Assembly: GCA_963845665.1 (NCBI GenBank)
Contig: CAWJTA010000003.1
Location: forward strand, 767,518 to 831,517
DNA: 64,000 bases
Source of the DNA: an uncultured Verrucomicrobiae bacterium
Lineage (GTDB): Bacteria > Verrucomicrobiota > Verrucomicrobiia > Limisphaerales > UBA11358
Direction: 5' to 3'
Position numbers and translations under genes: made by a program. Below the pieces are notes generated by a model, which searched no databases, was not told the origin of the DNA, and saw only the letters and a list, made by a program, of their open reading frames with translations. Positions 6,843 through 17,100 of this stretch are shown in pieces. How positions within the stretch are numbered: position 1 is the first letter of the stretch; every line of letters starts with the position of its first letter.

Positions 6843-8573
6843 TCAATCGTCGGACATCAATGTTCCCTGCGCAGGTACTATGGGCTTTTCACCCGGCAGT
6901 TGCCGGAACGGGACGACGTTGCAGCGCTGCGCCCAGGCATCGTACATGCCCGACAAATCCCTGACTTTCTCCGGATAGAGCGCGGCCACGTTGGTCAACT
7001 CGGTCCGGTCGGTTTTCATATCGTAAAGTTCCCAGGGATGACCCTGGAGGGCGACGAGTTTCCATCGGTCCAATCTCACGGCGCGATTTCCCTCGTGCTC
7101 CCAAAAAATCGGGGCGCGATCCGGGCGATCGCGTCCCTCGAAAATGGGGAGGAGACTTTCGCCCTCGAGGGGCAAGAGGATATTACCCTGGTAACTTTCG
7201 GGATGCTGAATGCCGGCCACTTCCAGCATGGTGGCTTTGATATCGGTCACGTGGGCGAGTGCGGTGGACATGGCGCCGGTATTTTTAATCACCGTTGGCC
7301 AGCGCGCGATAAAGGGCACGGCGATGCCTCCTTCATGAGCAAAATGCTTGTAGAGCCGAAACGGCGTGGCACTGACGTTTGCCCAGGGGATGCCGTAGCT
7401 TTGCCATACATCGTTGGGACCGGCGAATACGGAATGGTTCTCGTTACCCGCCCATACACGCCTTCCGTCACGTGTCAGGCTGGGGACGTCATACCATTCA
7501 GGCATGATGTCCTCCGCACAAGCGCCGTTGTCTGAGAAGAAGATCACAAGCGTGTTGTCATCAATGCCCAATTCTTTTAATCGAGCCATGATTTGGCCAA
7601 CGCCGTCGTCGAGGTGTTCGACCATGGCGGCGTAGGTGGCCATGCGATTGGCCTGCCATGCTTTGTCCACGACATTGGTCCAGTCAGGCACGCGCGGGTC
7701 GCGTGGCGACAACCGCCAGGATTTGTCGATGATGCCCATCTTGATCTGACGCTGATAACGTCGGGCCCGAATGATGTCCCAGCCCGCCAGATAACTGGCA
7801 CGATATTTGGCGATGTCCTTTTCTGGAGCCTGCAGCGGCCAATGTGGAGCGGTATAAGCCACATACAGAAAGAATGGTTTGGCCGCTCCGGCATAGTGAT
7901 CAAGGTCGCCCAGGGCGTGATCCGTGATGACATCGGTATAATAGAAATTTGTGCCCGGCGCGCGAGTGGGCGTGTTGCCGTCCACGAGCGAAAACGGGTC
8001 ATAGTAGCTGGTCACGCCGTGGATGCTGCCGAAATAACTTTCGAAGCCACGCTGCATGGGCCAACTGTCTTTGGTGTCCCAGAACGGCACGTGGGACTGG
8101 AAATTTAACTGTTTCTTCCCGTCGAAATAGATGTGGCTGAGATGCCATTTGCCGACCATGGCGGTGTGGTAATCGCCGAGCCGCAGTTCCTCGGCAACGG
8201 TCAGGCAATTTCGATTGAGTTCGCCGCGATATCCGGGGATGCCACGGTCCTCCATCATGTCGCCCACACCGGTCTGTTGAGGATATAACCCAGTCAAAAA
8301 CGCGGCGCGGGAGGGACAGCAGCGCGGAGTCGTATAAAATTGCGTCAGCCGCAATCCCTGGGCGGCCATGCGGTCGAGGTTCGGCGTTGGGATTTCAGAA
8401 CCGTAACAACTCAAATCCGAATATCCGAGGTCGTCGGCGAGAATCACCACAATATTGGGCCGTGTCCTGACGGCCTCCGCCGCCCAGGTCCTGAGTGTCA
8501 ATCCAACGAATAAAACGAGGAACAATATCCATTTCCTGGCAAACGATAAGAGCGCGAACATTTCCTCAAACAT
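6843..8573 (-). CDS. Arylsulfatase (Cys-type formylglycine sulfatase, family S1)
   Basis: RPNIVVILADDLGYSD, CCPSRAAFLTG (CxPxR), GKWHL, FFSDNG, WEHEGNRAVR; signal-like N-terminus. Confidence 0.93.
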   Translation of the reverse strand: MFEEMFALLSFARKWILFLVLFVGLTLRTWAAEAVRTRPNIVVILADDLGYSDLSCYGSEIPTPNLDRMAAQGLRLTQFYTTPRCCPSRAAFLTGLYPQQTGVGDMMEDRGIPGYRGELNRNCLTVAEELRLGDYHTAMVGKWHLSHIYFDGKKQLNFQSHVPFWDTKDSWPMQRGFESYFGSIHGVTSYYDPFSLVDGNTPTRAPGTNFYYTDVITDHALGDLDHYAGAAKPFFLYVAYTAPHWPLQAPEKDIAKYRASYLAGWDIIRARRYQRQIKMGIIDKSWRLSPRDPRVPDWTNVVDKAWQANRMATYAAMVEHLDDGVGQIMARLKELGIDDNTLVIFFSDNGACAEDIMPEWYDVPSLTRDGRRVWAGNENHSVFAGPNDVWQSYGIPWANVSATPFRLYKHFAHEGGIAVPFIARWPTVIKNTGAMSTALAHVTDIKATMLEVAGIQHPESYQGNILLPLEGESLLPIFEGRDRPDRAPIFWEHEGNRAVRLDRWKLVALQGHPWELYDMKTDRTELTNVAALYPEKVRDLSGMYDAWAQRCNVVPFRQLPGEKPIVPAQGTLMSDD

Positions 8574-8799
8574 AGCGATTCAAGGAATGTTGAACTTTTG
8601 CGGCGTCCCTGCCAAGAACTGCGTTAAGACGCCAATGGACAGGGTTGCCTGAGCCCAGCGACACCTATTAAGCCCGAAACGTCAATAGGGAAAAAAAGAG
8701 GGGCACGGAATCTTTTGGAAACCGCGTAGCGGACTTCAAAACGGGAACTCCGACTTAATTTCGGTTTGCAGCGCGGATGCAGGGCATCCGGCTAAACAC

Positions 8800-9270
8800 C
8801 TATTGGGACTCAATCGAGCCGGCCAAAGTTCAAAGGGAACCTCAGCCGACTTTCCAGTCCCCTGATCGAACGCCAGGGGACGGTCCAGAAACACACAGCA
8901 GTAAACCCACGCGCTATCCAGGCACATTGGCCGACGGTTGCCCGATGTTGATTGTCCAACCCGGGACTCCAGTATTTTGCGGACGTGCGAATGGGGCGGA
9001 TGCTCCAAAGGTAGAACGTTCTGAAGTGATGCGACCGCAAGCTAAAAGGAGCCGGGGCCGATAGCAAGCCATCACGCTCGCGGCCCCGGCGTCGAAGGCG
9101 TGCGATCAACGACCGCTGGCGAGCTGGCTCAATCACATTTAGGGAGTCCTGGTGGATCCAGCTCAGACCGGGGTGTTCAAAACACCAGGGAATATGGTCT
9201 GGGTTGAATGAGGATCTCACGATTGATCGGCTCCAGTCGCAGCGCAGGCTCAGGTCGCCAGGGTCGAAAT
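8800..9270 (-). ncRNA. Candidate bridge/seek RNA region (structured 3' non-coding end of the IS110 element)
   Basis: 471-nt region downstream of the transposase with no convincing ORF and several perfect stems: 9051-9060/9081-9090 (10 bp), 8857-8864/8874-8881 (8 bp), 9121-9127/9158-9164 (7 bp), 9172-9177/9181-9186. Expression and boundaries not shown. Confidence 0.55.
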
Positions 9271-10347
9271 TTAGTTGCGTGTTATCGAAGCAGCCAGGCG
9301 CTGGGGATCAAAGACGGTTTTGCTCTTAAGCATGTAGTAAACCGAACGGGCCAGCTTGATGGCCAGAAGGGCGTTGGCCTTGAACTTGTTGCCGCCCATG
9401 CGGACCAGGAGGCGTTGATAGAGCGGGCCCATGAATGCCTGATCGCGTTTGGCAATGATGGCCGCCTCACCGAAGGCCCAGCGCAGATAGGGATTGCCCA
9501 GCTTATGGCCGCGCAGGCCCTTGATCTTGCCGGCTGAAGCGACGGTGCCCTTGACCAGGCGACAATAGCTCAGGAAGTCTTTGACTGTGGGGAATCGGTC
9601 GATGTCGCCAATTTCGTAGAGGAGCGTCAGACCCAGGTGCTTGCCAATGCCGGTGATGGTTTGCAGTAAAATATAATCGCGCTGAGCATGGACTTTGGTC
9701 AACCGTTCCAATTGATCATCCAGGATGGCGATTTGAGTATCGAAATGGCGGATGAGGGCGAACTGATTTTGGAGAGCTAGCTGGTAAACGCGGTTGGGTT
9801 CCTGAGCCAGCGCATGTTCCTGCCAACGGTCGCGGTTGGAGCAAGAGTTGGGGATGCGGTTGTGAGCCAGTTGATGGGATTGGACGCGGGTAATGAGTTC
9901 AGTACGGTCCCAAACGAAATGGAGACGCTGGCGCAAGAGAGCTCGCAGAGGCCGCTGGGCGGCGGGATAGACGTAGCTGGGTGGAATGAGATTGACACGC
10001 AGCAGTTGAGCGAGTTTTTCGGAATCAATGCGGTCATTTTTGTTTTTGCCGCCATGAATGGCCTTGAGGTAGAGGGCGTGAGCCAGGACGAAATGGATGC
10101 CGGCCTGGGCACAGGCGTCGGCGAGCCAATACCATCCGAACATGCATTCGGCACAGACGGTTAGGTCGTGGCGATAAGGGGCGACCAACTGCAGGAAAAA
10201 GTTGAAGTCATTGTTTCGGATATTGGTGTGGACCAGGATTTTTCCGGAACGATCCATGAGACAGACATACATTTGCCGGGAATGGAGATCGATTCCGCAG
10301 TTGAATTCGGTGGTGGAGGTGTAATACTTCATAACGTAATACTTCAT
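9271..10347 (-). CDS. IS110-family transposase/recombinase (DEDD RuvC-like domain plus C-terminal Tnp domain)
   Basis: GIDLH, CAEC, KNDRID (D-E-D-D); C-terminal ITGIG..EIGDIDRF..VASAGK (conserved Ser)..GNPYLRWAFGEAA. Start at ATG 10347 or 10332. Confidence 0.95.
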   Translation of the reverse strand: MKYYVMKYYTSTTEFNCGIDLHSRQMYVCLMDRSGKILVHTNIRNNDFNFFLQLVAPYRHDLTVCAECMFGWYWLADACAQAGIHFVLAHALYLKAIHGGKNKNDRIDSEKLAQLLRVNLIPPSYVYPAAQRPLRALLRQRLHFVWDRTELITRVQSHQLAHNRIPNSCSNRDRWQEHALAQEPNRVYQLALQNQFALIRHFDTQIAILDDQLERLTKVHAQRDYILLQTITGIGKHLGLTLLYEIGDIDRFPTVKDFLSYCRLVKGTVASAGKIKGLRGHKLGNPYLRWAFGEAAIIAKRDQAFMGPLYQRLLVRMGGNKFKANALLAIKLARSVYYMLKSKTVFDPQRLAASITRN

Positions 10348-10462
10348 GGTTGATGGGGTCGTCAGACCCCGTTGATTATGTTTACGCGGGGAGTGCTGGT
10401 AACACTCCCCGCCCTTCACCCAAGATGATAGCTCAAACCACCAAGGGCTTAACTGGGAGGAT

Positions 10463-10572
10463 CACATTTTATTTACATAGCATGCGCAACGCGCAACGAG
10501 ATTTGATTTTAGGGCGAAATGTGTGGTTTTATTGGTTTTTTTGAAGAGTTTACCGGTAGCGATGCGCAACGA
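10463..10572. repeat. 110-bp direct repeat, copy 1 (interrupted at its left edge by the IS110)
   Basis: Ungapped alignment to 10990-11099 with 10 mismatches; contains three gcgcaacg units. Confidence 0.9.
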
Positions 10573-10750
10573 GACGCGGTATTAGATTGGTGAATTTTTG
10601 GATGGGCGGACTTGTCGGAGCGCGATTATCCCGCAGTCGGGCATAGGCGTAAAGTTGAGCGCGTCGTGTTGGCAATGCTGGAAGATGCCGCAGATCAGTT
10701 TCGCGCTATCGCGCGGCTTCGCAGCACGCGGCTGAAATTTATCGGCTATC

Positions 10751-10813
10751 AACCCAGGGCGGCGCTCGCAGACTCGCTTGCCCTGGGCTATTACCTGTCG
10801 CCCTTCACAGGGC
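10751..10813. repeat. REP-like double hairpin (cccagggc...gccctggg, then gccct-tcac-agggc)
   Basis: 8-bp stem 10753-10760/10780-10787 followed by a 5-bp stem 10800-10813; intergenic. Confidence 0.6.
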
Positions 10814-10989
10814 TTTCAGTTTGCGGCGTCGCCGACAAATGAGTTACGGCACATAAAAAAAGAATGATAATTTTTAATCCTTTGCTGTTTTCACGCGAAC
10901 CAAAGCCTTGACTTGACGCGGCTGCGCAGTCACGGGACTGCTACGATGGGTGAGGATGAAAATGACTCCGCGCACCCCTGGGGGCTATA

Positions 10990-11099
10990 CACATTTTATT
11001 TACATAGGATGCGCAACGCGCAACGAGATTTGATTTTAGGGCGAAATGTATGGTTTTATTGGGGTTTTTGAATATTTTGGCGGCAGCTATGCGCAACGA
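10990..11099. repeat. 110-bp direct repeat, copy 2 (intact)
   Basis: About 91% identical to 10463-10572; immediately downstream of the A2M stop codon. Confidence 0.9.
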
Positions 11100-11103
11100 A
11101 GTC

Positions 11104-14100
11104 TTAAGGCGCCTTGTCTTCAACATTGACCCGAATTTCCGCGCTGTTGCAGCGAATTTCGGGCACGTACATCGCCCCGCCTACGACTGGCAGGGCATGG
11201 AATCGTCCAGGGGTTTCCGCGCGCATGTCATAGCGAAGCTCCCAAATTCCCTGCGGCAAATGATCCAGGAACAGCGCGACCTGCCGGTCGCGCAGTTCCT
11301 GATAGACCCAACTGGTGCGGCCGGTGTAATCGGAATCCTCTTGCGGTCGCGGCGCGGGAATTATGGGAATCAGCAATTCCTGGCCGATTTTCAATCTGGA
11401 AGGCATCACCGAGACGTTGGCTTCCTCGATGGCGCGCACGGAAATCGCATATTGCTTCGAGATCGCGGCGAGCGTATCGCCGGCCCGGATAACATAAAGC
11501 TCGTTCGTACCGGAAAGCCGTCTCGCTGCGGCTGCGGATTTAAGCTCGCTGGCATAGAGCGATTCGCCGCTGCGGATTTCGACCGTCTCGAATCCAGCGG
11601 GCTTTAAATCTTCAAACATGAGATAATCGTAATCGTTCTTTGCCTCGAGGGTCAGCACGGTTTCGATACGCTCGCCGCTTTTAACGGTCCCGCCGTCCGG
11701 GAGCGGTTCGCGGTCGTCCACGTATCCCTTAAGCAATGTTGGGCGCGGAACGAGCTTGTAATATTCGCGTTTTACGAAAATCTCGTTCCCGGCGGGTGCG
11801 ATCGGCTCTTCGGTGCTGAAAAAGGAGGCGTTAGCGGAAAAATACAACGGCCGGTCGCCGGCAGCCTCAACGATGCGAATTTCATTTGAGTCCTGAATCC
11901 ACTTTGGATCAATGGTGAACCGGCTCGGCGCGTTGAAAACGTCAGCGGGGCTAATGTGCTGTTGGGCTATTCGGGTGCCATTGACGAAAAGGCTGAATGT
12001 TGTGGCGCTTTGCAGCTCTCCGCTCACACGCAGGTAATCGTTCAGCGCCAGCACAGCGATGGCTGTATCGCGGGTATTGTTCCATTGCGCGCCGCGACGA
12101 TTTTTGACGAGCCAATTGGCCACCGGCTCAATCAACGCATTCGTCGGGTCAATCGCCAGGAGCGCGCGCAAGGCAAAGGCCGTCGCCTCAACGCCGCTAT
12201 CAGACCAATGCCAAAAGACGCCGTCATTGCCCCAATGCGCCGTGGCCATGACGGTTGGCGATGAGTTGGTCGATGACGAAGCATTCCCCATGAGGATGGA
12301 TTGGTCCGGATGCTCGTCACGAATGACGCCGTTTTCGAGATTGGCCGCCAGGATTTTGGCGCGGTCATCAAATCCGTACTCGTGTGCGCTCAGCGCGAGC
12401 AGGGCGCGCGTATAGGCATTGAGTTGGTCGCGGTTTTGCCAGAGGTTATCAAAGGCGGCCCGTTGAAATTTGTTGATTTTGCGCGAATGACACGACGCCA
12501 GCGCGTGCAGCATAAATGCCTGCATATCGTAATTCTCCTTTTCATCCACCAAATGCGAGTCGAGATACCTAATCCCACGCTGCAAGACATTGGGTTTGAG
12601 TTGAACGCCCGCCTCACGCGCCAGCGCCAGGCCCCAGAGCACATATGCGGTCATCCAATGGTCGCTGTCGTCGTCCTTCCACCAACCCCAACCACCGTCG
12701 TTATGTTGAAAATCATACAAACGATCCAGGCCGGCCCGGGTCATTTCGTCCATTTCATCAAGGCTCTTTTTGCCTTCCGGATGGGTTGCCGCAGCACTGT
12801 TGGTTTCAATGCCGCCGAACACGCGATCCATGGCGTCACCCGGCTGCAGGCCAAGATCGCGGAGTGTTTTGGCGGTGATCACCGTCGGCAAAAACCGGCT
12901 CATGGTTTGCTCGGTGCAACCGTAAGGATAATTGATTAAGTATGGCAACGCATCGAGCATCGTCACGGCCATACTGGGCGTGACCTGGACGGCAAGCGAA
13001 GTGGAATTCGGTTTGCGTTCGTCAGGCAGGACCAATTCCACCGTCGTTTCGTCGCATCGAGTCTTGCCGGATTTCGAGATGAATTTTTCGATGCCATGCT
13101 CGTATGCCGTGAACGAATTCTCCATCGCGTCCGCGTACTGATCACTTCGCGCCGTGACTTTTAAATTCACATCGCCGGGCGATTCAACCCTGGCTGTCCA
13201 ATCAGCGCGCGCCTGGCCATTGGGAGGAACGTCAAGTGTCTGGGTGTGAGTGGCGGACCGGGAGGTCCGCCCTACCATGCCGGAATCCTGCGCTACGTCC
13301 AGGCCACTGGCGTCGAGGGAGACTTTCGCTTCGAGTGGTTTGTCTGTGTTGTTGTTGACGACTGCGGAAATCGTGACCGTGTCGCCTGCCACAAAAAAGC
13401 GGGGTCCTTCAAGGCGCACGATGAGCGGTTTCCGCGTGCGAGTAGTCGTTTGGGCGATGCCAAATTGATTGGCTGTCGTCACCGCCCGCGCTGTGGCCCG
13501 CCAACTCGTGAGCGAATCCGGATAGGTGACCTTCACCATCGCCTCGCCGTTTTTATCTGTCATGACGTCCGGCTGCCAGAAAACCGTGGAACGGAAATCA
13601 CTGCGCACGACCACGGTTGGCTGTTCGCGTTCGTGTCCACCAGCGCCGCCAAAGCCGTTGTCAGCCAGTTTTTCCCTAAATAAACTGCCCATGACGGGGA
13701 TCCCCTCGACCATCGGCGATACAGGGCTGCCAGCCATCGCCCCATACGTTGTTTGGCGCCCCGCAAAGGAGCGTGTCGTGACATAGTCAAGTCCGATTGC
13801 AGACTGGCCGGGTTGCGGGGCCATCTTCATGTTCACATAGCCAACCACGCTTATATGTGGTTCGCCAAACGACATATCTTGCGCGCCGCCGCCGCCGCCA
13901 CCGCCTCCGGCATTTCCGGCAATGCCCGGCGTCATTCTCCCCAAGCGACTTTGTTCCTCCAGCCGTTCCTTCTCTTTGTCATCGATTAACTGGTTTTTCC
14001 ATTTCACGAGCCGTGTATAAGTCTTTTGGTTCATCGTGGACTGCGTTTGGATCTGCTGGTTGCGCTTGGTCCCAAAGAAAAACTCCCGGGGATCGCCCGC

Positions 14101-17100
14101 ATAATCGTCCTGGATGTAGAAAACGGATTCATCCGCGAGACTGAGCGCCACTTCAGCGGGAACCGGTTTGCCCTGATCATCGCGCGTGGTGACCTTCAAC
14201 GTGCCCTCGTCACGCGGCTCGTAGTCGTTGCGGTCGGCCTTAACCTCCACGTTCAGGAAGTTTTTCACCGGCGGCACAACAATTTGTTTTTCATCCGTGA
14301 AAATCTGACGGTCGCTCACCAGCGTCGCATCCAGAAAAATATTGGGCACATCACTTTCATCTATGGGAAGATTGACGAGCTTTACCGTGCCGTCCATGTA
14401 AACGAGTTGGTAATGATAGATGCCCTGCCCTTCAACCGTGAACAGGACATAGCGGTCCGCCGATGGCGCCACCAGCATCACGGGCGCGGTTCCTCCGGCG
14501 TGGAATGTGTCTTTGTCGGCGATGATTTCGATGCCACCGGTGCGATAGCCCAGCTCCGTGGTGCGGTTATTTACGGCCCAAATTGTGGCATCAGCATTGA
14601 TCGGCTGCGGCAGATGGTTGGCAGGAGCATCGCGACCCGACCAGGTAATATGATAATAACCTTTGCGCTCGGGCTTGAAAGTCAGCTCGGCATCGCCATT
14701 GGTGTCTGTGGTCAAATGCTGTGTCAGAATATTGTCATGCTCATAGCCGCGGAATTTTAACTCCCAATCCCTTTGATCCGGGCGCGCGGGCGGAGGCGGC
14801 CATGTTTTGTATTTGGCCTGAAGGGCCTTCAACTCGTCGCCTTTTACCTCATGGCCATCGGGCGCGAGCCAGATCTCGTACCAATAATCGCGCGTTACCT
14901 TCACGTCACCGTCCACCTGCACCGGCTGGTCATTGGCATCCAGCGCCTTGAAATTCACGGTCACTTTGTCGCGCGGCAAATAGAGATTATGGGCGGGTTT
15001 GGCATAGACGTAATATGATTGGCGCGTCACCCGCACTGATCCGTTCCCGGTGATTTCGCGGCGTGACGCATCGGTGACGCGCGCTTCAATGTCGTACTCA
15101 AAATCACTGCCTGCATTTTGCGGCGTCCCGAATGTCAACGTCGCCTTGCCGGTTGCATCGGTTTTGAGCGTGGCATTGGTAATGATTTGCTCTCCGCCAT
15201 ACCAGCCGCCATTAGGCGAGGCCGTATCCATGTCCTCATAGAGCCACGGATAATCCCGCGACTCAAACCAGGAATGGACAAACGGTTTCTGGTGAACGAC
15301 AACGTTCACATCCGCATTGGCCACCGGCGCGCCAAAGTAATAATCCGCCTGTATCGTGGCCGCGACTGTATCGCCCAGCCGAAATGTTTTTCGATGGCCA
15401 TTTTCCTCCGGGGTCTGGACTGTTACTTTGAACTCCGGCAGCTTGTATTCTTCGAGTCTGAATAGAGTGGCGTTGCCGATGTTGCGATGATGCCCCACGT
15501 TCCAAAACCGCACCTGATATTCACCCAACGGCATTTGCTCCGTGAGATCAAGCGATCCCCATGCGCTGCCAAATTCGTTAAACTTGATTTTCCCCGATTT
15601 CACCTTCGTCCCGCGCGGATCCCAAATTTCATACTCGATCGCGCGTCCGGAAGGCGTTGAATAAACCGAGCCATCGTAGCTGCGCGCGATAAACTTCCAG
15701 TTCACCGTTTCTTTGGGGCGATATGCCGGACGGTCCGTGAAAGCGTAAATGTGCCAGCCTGCCGATTCGTCGTCGCCGCCGCCATAGCTATAATTATCCC
15801 CGGTCACGAACGCCTGCCGGTTCCCACTTCGAGCCGTGGCGTAAAAAGTCGCGCCATTGTCCATTTTTTGGGCCAAGGGAATCTCCACGATACCATTTGA
15901 ACCGGTGACGCCATCATACGAACGCGAATGCCATCCGTTGTCGTTCCAAAGCATCCAAAGTTTGACGGGGGCGTTTGTGATGGGCGCACTGTTCAGGGCG
16001 TCACAAAAATAAGCCAGCGCCGAGCGATTAGATGTTTTCAGGACCAAAGCGGCATCCGTCACCAAAACCAAATCCCGGCTGCTTTTCCCGCCGCCTTGCG
16101 CCTCAAGGATATATGCGCCTGGTTTCAATTTTCTGTCCAACCGCACCACAGAGCCGGTTGGCGCATAATCACCCGGATAGTCCACTTTCCGTGTCCATCG
16201 TTTCATCGCCTTGAGCGATTTCAAATCAATGGTTTGAATCCAGTCGCGTTGGTTGCGAAGTTGCCGGGAAATTCACCGCTGCATTTAAATCCGCCGAATA
16301 CAACGCCAGCCGTATCTGCTTTACGTTTCGCGAAGTAAGGGAATATTGAATTTCCGAATCCGGCAGAAAGATACTGTCCGTGCCCACCGTGATTTGCGGG
16401 CCGGTGATGTTTCCAATTTCATTTGTGGCTTGCTCCCAAAAACGGGACTCTCCCTGGGCAAACGATTGGTGAGCTGGCGGAAGAGCGCCAGGGCCCGGGC
16501 ATAATCGGGTTGCGACGACCAATTGCCATCCTTGTCCATCACGGCCCGGCCGTTTTGTTCGAGGAATTGGCCGTAGTTAAAGAGCGCCGCGTCATACCAA
16601 TCGGTCTTTTTGCCGGCGCTGAGGGCCGACTCGAATTCCTGCGTCATGCGGGCGGCTTGCGCCCAATCATTCCATTGCACCCGCAATGTCATGGCCATGA
16701 GATAATGCGCGTGCGCCTTGTCCTCATCCGTTTGCGCGATTTTGGCCGCGTTTTCCAGGACGTCCGGTGGAATCTCAAATCCCCAATCGCCATAGCTGAA
16801 TTGCGCGTTTACGCCCGGTGGACGCGCCATCTTCCAAACGATGTTCAGATAGCGAGTGCGGGCCATATCCAAGTCGCTCTGCCCGGCCCACCAATCGAGC
16901 GCCGACTGAAAATGGGGAAACGCGCTGCTCCAATCGGTGTTTTGGGCGCGCCAAAAAAAATCTCCAAGCGATTCCTCGACCTCGGCCCAAATCCGATCAT
17001 GCTGGTCTTCACGCGTCAAATCACGGACTTGGTTCTCGAGACTGTCGCGGGCCGCGTCCAATTCGCTCGTGTCCGGATTGCCGGTAGCCGCGGCGGAACG

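Follow-up and report, generated by a model that had tools for sequence, protein, structure and literature searches.

The window analysed here is a stretch of 64,000 nucleotides from an uncultured Verrucomicrobiae bacterium (contig CAWJTA010000003.1, positions 767,518 to 831,517 of the forward strand); all positions below refer to this window. It contains a complete insertion sequence (IS) of the IS110 family and the IS1111 type. The element is present in seven copies in the genome, each inserted at the edge of a short A/T-rich motif that usually forms the head of a dispersed 110-bp repeat. Its relatives in the same genus are inserted in the attC sites of integrons. Most likely, internal loops of an RNA from the downstream non-coding region guide the element, and changes in the loops have redirected it from attC to the repeat head. 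We regard this reading as a whole as very probable. In the following, G000 denotes the genome holding the window, other G-numbers denote genomes of the same genus and L-numbers denote loci.

Ends and copies of the insertion sequence

The stretch 8797–10466 is found in seven copies in G000, with 99–100% identity over 1,670 nt and an uninterrupted transposase frame in every copy. The sequence common to the seven copies is longer and extends from 8662–8664 through 10462–10465. On the right side (plus strand), the copies read ...GGGAGGAT-CACA|TTT and then diverge into similar, non-identical A/T-rich heads. Identity on this side reaches about 10466, and beyond the limits of the IS the sequences are unrelated. 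On the left side, all seven copies remain identical for 136 bp beyond 8797 and diverge only to the left of ...|ACACCTATTAAGCCC (8661/8662). Related elements (90–95% identity) on contigs of two soil metagenomes stop at 8661/8662 and at about 10470. Base 8661 is A in all seven G000 copies and G in one of these contigs (X2), so this base belongs to the flank. On the transposase strand the layout is left flank-(G)TG-ATCCTCCCAGTTAAGCCC ... GGGCTTAATAGG-(G)TG-right flank, with the following features.

8664–10462, minus strand: IS body, 1,799 bp, delimited by the seven copies, the divergence of their flanks and the metagenome relatives.
10462, minus strand: left end (transposase strand), beginning ATCCTCCCAG.
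8664, minus strand: right end (transposase strand), closing ...GGGCTTAATAGG.
10463–10464, minus strand: core copy TG of the left-end junction (GTG, 10463–10465), from comparison of the junctions.
8662–8663, minus strand: core copy TG of the right-end junction (GTG, 8662–8664 in G000), the dinucleotide common to both junctions.
10445–10452, minus strand: left subterminal inverted repeat TTAAGCCC, from sequence comparison.
8668–8675, minus strand: right subterminal inverted repeat GGGCTTAA, conserved in relatives.
8680–8685, minus strand: outward-facing -35-like TTGACG, read from the sequence; TTGACN is conserved in relatives.

The subterminal inverted repeats are 8 bp each and start 10 nt (left) and 4 nt (right) inside the ends of the body. 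Only TG is common to both junctions in G000 and in its relatives; in G000 this extends to GTG, and there is no long target duplication.

The initial annotation had placed the right-hand junction correctly: the seven copies diverge directly after ...GGGAGGAT-CACA|TTT, and 13 metagenome contigs start their repeat similarity at 10463. It differed on the left. In that map, the element ends at 8797–8799 and interrupts a 110-bp repeat that continues at 8790, where ggctaaa resembles the ggctata beside the unoccupied twin of the repeat (10 of 11 positions match between 8790–8799 and 10983–10992) and a CAC follows at 8797–8799. The probability of this map is now negligible. Positions 8662–8796 are common to all seven copies, which become unrelated only further left. 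Consequently, 8797 lies 136 bp inside the element and ggctaaa-cac is internal; it is the reverse complement of GTG-TTTAGCC, part of an internal motif described below. The same 136 nt, including the subterminal repeat and the -35-like box, are present in the relatives in other genomes and on the metagenome contigs that end at 8661/8662. An alignment of 65 hits with the head shows that the repeat family begins abruptly at CAC on its 5' side, with nothing conserved to the left of it. The earlier left end is thus refuted by comparison of copies, repeat edges, metagenome contigs and motif, and the resemblance between the flank of the twin (ggctata) and the motif gives no evidence of a target. A CAC (GTG) is indeed found at both junctions, with the left one at 8662–8664 instead of 8797–8799.

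If the IS were circularised, the junction would read ...GGGCTTAATAGG-TG-ATCCTCCCAG... (the left end is also written ATCCTCCC). The circle junction proposed earlier, cccaatagGTGatcctccc, is nearly right by coincidence only; the true right end reads cttaatagGTG. In the circle, TTGACG would be located 17 nt from GATCCT, which consists of the G of the core and the left end; the partner hexamer of the relatives is GATACT. TTGACG and GATCCT may constitute a circle-junction promoter, as suggested by their sequence and spacing. A junction promoter of this kind is described for the IS110/IS1111 family in PMC11187229.

The transposase

The transposase is encoded in a minus-strand open frame at 9271–10419 (382 aa).

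9271–10347, minus strand: transposase gene, 358 aa from the ATG at 10347, stop codon at 9271–9273, identified by the open reading frame (ORF), Pfam and NCBIfam; the frame is open in all seven copies.

The ATG at 10347 is the likely start; a second ATG at 10332 gives 353 aa. The N-terminal, RuvC-like DEDD domain matches PF01548 with 64.7 bits (cut-off 29) and the C-terminal part matches PF02371 (Transposase_20) with 63.7 bits, in agreement with the earlier recognition of an IS110-family transposase between 8797 and 10466. NCBIfam NF033542 ('IS110 family RNA-guided transposase') scores 205 bits against a cut-off of 140. The C-terminal part aligns weakly with the solved IS621 transposase (36 bits), which places the Ser of ...VASAGK under the Ser of ...YESGSS; presumably, the aligned Ser is the catalytic one. 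The nearest transposase among the PLSDB plasmids has 46% identity.

The assignment to the IS1111 group relies on the published descriptions of that group. Subterminal inverted repeats of 7–17 bp are given as a criterion in PMC11208160, and the 8-bp repeats of the present element are within this range. A longer non-coding region downstream of the transposase gene is given in PMC11187229; here, 607 nt are non-coding downstream and 115 nt upstream, as in the IS1111 group. The same source describes transposases of 330–350 aa with the motif GL-P----S(t)G and occasional TA variants. The corresponding region of the present transposase (358 or 353 aa) is RLVKGTVASAG: the Ser is retained, the next residue is A, and the G-L-P positions are not conserved. 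The element is real and complete, as had been proposed; it is an IS110-family element of the IS1111 type. It has seven near-identical copies with open frames and is probably active, or was so recently.

Target sites in G000

The element adjoins one member of a pair of direct repeats with 91% identity over 110 nt, a pair that the initial annotation had already described.

10463–10572, plus strand: 110-bp repeat, occupied copy; the head, which supplies the left target arm, consists of the first 19 nt, CACATTTTATTTACATAGC (repeat alignment).
10990–11099, plus strand: unoccupied twin of the 110-bp repeat (repeat alignment).

A blastn search with the repeat gave 74 hits in G000, often in same-strand clusters 220–530 bp apart. 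The alignment of the 65 hits that contain the head shows a sharp 5' edge at CACATTTTATTTNCNTAGG, upstream of which the sequence is not conserved, and a 3' end AACGAGA. There are two subtypes of the repeat, in which 2–3 internal direct repeats change together (GCGCAACGAG or GTGTGAACGAG). The head-only pattern is found at 104 sites in G000, of which 7 are occupied and 97 unoccupied. This number exceeds the 74 repeat hits, so the head also opens other sequences.

All seven IS copies have the same orientation, with the left end directly outside the head ...AAAT-GTG. Six of them are located at heads of 110-bp repeats (four of these repeats are otherwise uninterrupted, two are also broken by a second IS 24 bp further in), and one adjoins a head that is followed by other sequence. 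On the transposase strand, the insertion site reads CTAYRNNNARNAAAT-GTG | T.... The restored empty site would read ...AAAATGTG-T.... The earlier proposal of specificity for a repeat family, a short core and no long duplication is borne out by the position of all seven copies at the head and by the sharing of TG/GTG only. It had also assumed that the element interrupts the 110-bp repeat. Instead, the element sits at the outer edge, and the repeat supplies the left arm only; the right arm is variable flank. Accordingly, the target proposed earlier is correct in its left half (aaataaaat-GTG) and in its core, and its right half, TWTAGC, is element sequence. The expectation that other copies lie at AAAAT-GTG-TWTAGC with the same ends holds in so far as all seven lie outside ...AAAT-GTG; their left ends differ from 8797. 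At the right arm, T follows GTG at all seven occupied sites and at 48 of the 97 unoccupied heads. TCG follows GTG at four of the occupied sites.

Neither strand of the 110-bp repeat folds better than shuffles (z +0.34 and -0.40), and the repeat has no match in Rfam and no sigma-70 promoter or terminator above shuffles. It was considered as an attC site and rejected, as no pair of inverted core sites is visible by eye and the fold does not exceed shuffles. The clustering of the repeat looks cassette-like, yet attC features are lacking. The repeat is nearly lineage-specific: of 162 other genomes of the genus, 2 contain it. One soil metagenome is rich in it, with 13 contigs whose similarity begins exactly at 10463.

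The second IS is an unrelated IS110-family element of about 1.6 kb with three identical copies in G000 (C2:1670375-1671914, C1:1655401-1656940 and C1:1053215-1054754). Its ORF (L002:3189-4313) encodes 375 aa and matches PF02371 with 44.7 bits. It is inserted inside the same head, 24 bp from the first element, and reads ...TTTACATAG|ATAACATGAG...CTCTCATAG|CAGGGAACGC. Two loci have both elements in a single repeat. From their presence in the same head, it appears that two distinct RNA-guided elements have converged on the same repeat.

Relatives in the genus are inserted in attC sites

Relatives of the transposase with 73–84% protein identity are present in 4 of 24 sampled genomes of the genus, and homologues of the downstream non-coding region are present in 39 of 162 other genomes (40 of 163 including G000). 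The left junction of the relatives is GCGAYT-TG|ATACTCCC...TTAAGCCC and the right junction is GGGCTTAATAGG|TG-TTAGRC. The left junctions, GCGAYTTG|ATAC, are located within hairpin repeats that start with GCCTAAC; at the right end, 25 of 30 junctions show TGTTAG. The interrupted sequence corresponds to a classical attC, an imperfect hairpin of about 100 nt with the start GCCTAAC and the end GTTAGGC (-25.9 kcal/mol, z -3.0). Intact attC copies nearby read ...CCATTG|TTAGGC. Since both the junctions and the intact neighbouring sites are attC, the clade is attC-targeting. The integron integrase crosses over at G|TT of the attC core, and the TG core of the relatives is at this position or within 2 nt of it. 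None of the seven copies in G000 is in an attC site. A crude pattern search of G000 gave 13 arm-pattern hits and no paired core sites.

Three copies in G145 (L077, L094, L095) are inserted in a non-attC repeat, ...GTTCAGTTMAGAGGCGATTTG|TCTGTCCGG.

In other genomes the relatives fill successive attC sites of one cassette array (L039/L046 on C4 and L053/L056 on C9 of G017, L040/L047/L054 on C3 of G011). The copies are spaced 2.5–2.7 kb apart in G017 and 6.3 kb in G011. At L041/L066 (G004 C10), a right end has CACAGCCACC after it in place of TGTTAG, and the left junction of another copy lies about 110 bp downstream. This arrangement is tandem or damaged.

The non-coding region and its stems

A guide RNA presumably comes from the non-coding region that follows the transposase gene.

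8664–9270, minus strand: 607-nt non-coding region, presumed source of the guide (seek/bridge) RNA; homologous in 40 of 163 genomes, with compensatory changes.
8689–8700, minus strand: T-run after a degenerate hairpin, candidate 3' end of the guide RNA, proposed from the clean hairpin and T-run in relatives.

Seventeen lineages were aligned from the stop codon to the right end of the IS. The helices that close two internal loops were defined by hand and then tested against shuffles and slid controls. Five helices comprise 35 pairs, which are paired in 95.6% of cases; 13 pairs are changed on both sides. None of 500 shuffles reaches any of the five measures, and slid positions are paired to 29–47%. 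The G-U pairs that are invariant in all 17 lineages identify the transposase strand as the RNA strand. Folds of the whole region by RNAalifold were set aside because of unstable long-range pairs; the helices rest on the inspection by hand and the test described above. In relatives, a clean hairpin (ACGGAAAG...CTTTCCGT) and a T-run are located just upstream of the -35-like box. The hairpin is degenerate in G000. Hairpin and T-run together are a plausible 3' end of the RNA.

Loop strands match the target

Loop 1 and loop 2 contain segments that correspond to the target.

9236–9242, minus strand: loop 1, 5' strand CTGCGAC, complementary to the core G and the right target arm (GTCGCAG); variants in relatives match their own arms.
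9132–9142, minus strand: loop 1, 3' strand CTAAATGTGAT, identical to AAATGTG-AT (left arm, core and the left end's first 2 nt).
8972–8980, minus strand: loop 2, 5' strand GCAAAATAC; GCAAAAAAC in 15 of 17 lineages, GCAAAATAC in G000 and GCAAAACAC in G059.
8921–8932, minus strand: loop 2, 3' strand GGCCAATGTGCC, a second match to left arm and core (AATGTG), which tracks loop 1 across lineages.

In the attC types, the 5' strand of loop 1 (7 nt before the inner stem) is GTCTAAC or GCCTAAC, complementary to GTTAGAC or GTTAGGC. The 3' strand (9 nt after the inner stem) is CGATTTGAT or CGACTTGAT, which corresponds to the left arm of attC, the core and 2 nt of the left end. In G000, the 3' guide AAATGTGAT (within 9132–9142) agrees with the left junction at 9 of 9 nt in each of the seven copies. 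For CTGCGAC, 6 of 7 nt fit the right arm of the copy in the window; with wobble pairs included, it forms 5 or more contiguous pairs at 4 of 7 occupied sites versus 15 of 97 unoccupied heads. Both CTGCGAC (match to the top strand) and AAATGTGAT (match to the bottom strand) include core bases. The match to the top strand lies 5' of that to the bottom strand, the same order as reported for IS1111 seekRNAs (PMC11187229).

The segments that match the target vary with the target among relatives while the stems stay, as seen in G000, G145 and G141 compared to the attC types. The three copies in G145 have the right arm TCTGTCC, and the guide GACAGAC matches GTCTGTC at 7 of 7 nt. In G141, the left arm is GCGAGGTG and the guide is GCGCGGTG. 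Judged by these loop and flank sequences, G145 and G141 represent switches independent of that in G000, and the switch in G145 would concern the right arm only. Scored in a guide-by-target matrix, no loop-1 strand fits the target of another lineage better than that of its own, with ties only among lineages of the attC type. For G000, the 3' strand scores 9 of 9 with its own target versus 5–6 with others, and the 5' strand scores 6 of 7 versus 2–3. The 3' strand of loop 2 contains AATGTG in G000, TGGTG in G141, AAATG in G059 and ACTTG or ATTTG in the attC types. These matches between loops and targets make it plausible that an encoded RNA selects the target, as the initial annotation had suggested.

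A prediction from G059 and G060 (guides CACACAC and TAAAAATG against the G060 flanks TG-TGTGGGG) was set aside as a hint only, as it involves two genomes and cut contigs.

Selection of the target by the protein or by DNA structure, with the loop matches due to coincidence or shared ancestry, is improbable. In its favour, the attC sites are hairpins, the matches are not independent because the lineages are related, and the guide RNA is a presumed one. However, the target in G000 has no fold above shuffles, yet it has been used seven times. Moreover, G000, G145 and G141 show changed guide strands at exactly the homologous positions of the loop, and their flanks have changed along with them. Finally, the IS110/IS1111 family is RNA-guided in the experiments reported in PMC11187229 and PMC11208160.

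Guidance by the loops would proceed as follows. The element encodes a DEDD/serine recombinase and the 607-nt downstream non-coding region, which would be co-transcribed with the transposase gene and fold into stems around internal loops. In loop 1, the 5' strand would base-pair to the target's top strand across core and right arm, and the 3' strand to the bottom strand across left arm and core as well as the first 2 nt of the element's left end. Recombination would take place at the TG core (GTG shared in G000) with no further duplication. Most of the clade in the genus inserts in integron attC hairpins at ...GCGAYT-TG|TTAGRC. In G000 both loop strands have changed, and the element inserts at ...CTATGYAAATAAAA(T)-GTG|T, the outer edge of the head motif of the repeat.

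Several observations weigh against this proposal. The guide RNA from 8664–9270 and its guiding role are postulated from the DNA sequence, the region has no Rfam match at E <= 1, and its 607 nt far exceed the 82–172 nt of published seekRNAs (Table 1 of PMC13604230). The right-arm match is weak in three of the seven copies (2–3 contiguous pairs), and 15 heads that match well are empty. The match to the left arm recurs in loop 2, the 5' strand of this loop lacks an explanation, and the score of loop 2 with its own target is not the highest in every lineage. A search by exact matches for a donor loop for the left end gave only short or non-conserved hits, none of them convincing; GATCCTC in a stem (G000) and ATCACC in some lineages are not claimed as a loop. 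A search with the left flank (8250–8660) against 163 genomes of the genus revealed no orthologous empty site. In G015 and G078, which match best, the similarity is confined to the sulfatase gene, and G015 has a different neighbour and lacks the head motif. As no empty allele was readable, the unoccupied paralogous heads were used as comparison. The number of independent retargeting events is also small, about four, because the lineages are related.

The internal motif at 8790–8804

The positions at which the left end had originally been placed belong to a conserved motif.

8790–8804, minus strand: conserved internal motif AATAGGTGTTTAGCC, consisting of the tip of the right end, the core and TT; candidate donor-side guide, in 16 of 17 lineages.

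Of the 17 aligned lineages, 16 have the motif ATAGGTGTTTAGCCGG, which contains GTG-TTTAGCC; the exception is G115, with a deletion at this place. In G000 and G017, the first 8 nt of AATAGGTGTTTAGCC are the same as the tip of the right end and the core; in G142, G004b and G145, 7 nt (ATAGGTG) are. The best reading of AATAGGTGTT (8795–8804) is that of a donor-side guide that would mimic the right junction.

Two G060 contigs (L092, L093) break exactly at the internal motif AGTCCCAATAGG. One right end in G060 has a 20-nt duplication of its tip, GGGCTTAATAGGTGACGATTCGGGCTTAATAGGGG; the right flanks in G060 are TG-TGTGGGG.

The motif could also be a fossil. In that case, AATAGG-TG-TTTAGCC would be a former junction of the right end, left by an old tandem or nested insertion into a site resembling attC, rather than a donor-side guide, and the last 136 nt would have been recruited later. 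The motif does read as right end, core and an attC-like right arm (TTAGGC versus TTTAGCC), and the breaks in the G060 contigs and the small duplication of the tip are in line with such an origin. We consider it unlikely. The motif is invariant in 16 lineages while its surroundings have diverged to about 65% mean column identity, which argues for a present function, and the subterminal repeat GGGCTTAA of the true end is absent from it. The motif may be a fossil by origin and still serve as a guide.

Comparison with known systems

ISKpn4, ISPst6 and ISPa25, the IS1111-attC elements, are comparable in their features: a DEDD transposase, a long downstream non-coding region and subterminal inverted repeats. 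The relatives of the G000 element in the genus likewise enter attC in one orientation, whereas the element of the window uses no attC. For ISKpn4 and ISPst6 the site TTGAA*CG, about 10 nt upstream of GTTAG, is given in Table 1 of PMC13604230; the site of the genus relatives is ...TTG|TTAGGC.

A natural redirection is reported for ISEc11 and ISXne4, the transposases of which are 72% identical (Siddiquee et al. 2024, PMC11187229). As in the present elements (73–84% identity), the RNA stems are kept and the target-matching segments differ together with the targets. Here, in contrast, several switches are found in one genus (from attC to an attC variant, to the G145 repeat and to the head of the 110-bp repeat), and the matching segments belong to a much longer, multi-loop region that is known from sequence alone.

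In the bridge RNA of IS621, strands of an internal loop read opposite target strands around a short core (PMC11208160), as proposed for loop 1, and the transposases can be aligned weakly. In contrast to IS621, the RNA region of the present element is downstream of the transposase gene and not upstream, long subterminal repeats are present, the left arm is matched in two loops and there is no clear donor loop for the left end.

ISPa11 (PMC11187229) and ISPpu9 (PMC12288879), two members of the IS110 family, are also described as multi-copy elements inserted in one orientation into a dispersed intergenic repeat. Their repetitive extragenic palindromic (REP) targets are palindromic, whereas the head in G000 is rich in A/T, folds no better than shuffles and receives the element at its outer edge.

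Surroundings of the locus

The element and the two repeats lie between the start of a sulfatase-like ORF of 576 aa (6843–8573, minus strand) and the end of an ORF of 1,706 aa (11104–16224, minus strand) that resembles alpha-2-macroglobulin by eye. The insertion is about 90 bp upstream of the start of the sulfatase-like ORF and may affect its promoter. In the spacer between the repeat copies, outside the element, an Acido-Lenti-1 motif (RF01687) is found at 10753–10814 (plus strand) with 34 bits, just below the gathering score of 37. It is the only Rfam hit at E <= 1 in 8000–12000. G000 has 47 matches to this motif at E <= 0.01, seven of them over the cut-off, and some are located in the spacers of other repeat clusters.

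Implications

A more far-reaching picture can be drawn, for which we claim somewhat less than an even chance. The guide RNA would be unusually large, with several loops: loop 1 would read both arms, loop 2 would repeat the guide for left arm and core, and AAUAGGUGUU would read the element's own right end. The genus would hold a natural reprogramming series of attC, an attC variant and two non-attC repeats, the attC types would insert at or within 2 nt of the integrase crossover, and the repeat head would be a 'safe harbour' for two unrelated IS110-family elements.

The principle of the seekRNA or bridge RNA and a natural redirection have already been published, so the gain is a well-resolved new case and not a new mechanism. 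The corrected map of the element matters for the design of any polymerase chain reaction or assay. The elements described here are a natural example in which close relatives keep the protein and, as read from the alignment, the RNA stems, differ in a few loop bases, and differ in their insertion sites to match. The genus, one of soil bacteria, shows several switches of this kind; the pairs would offer ready tests of how loop positions correspond to target positions in the less-studied IS1111 branch.

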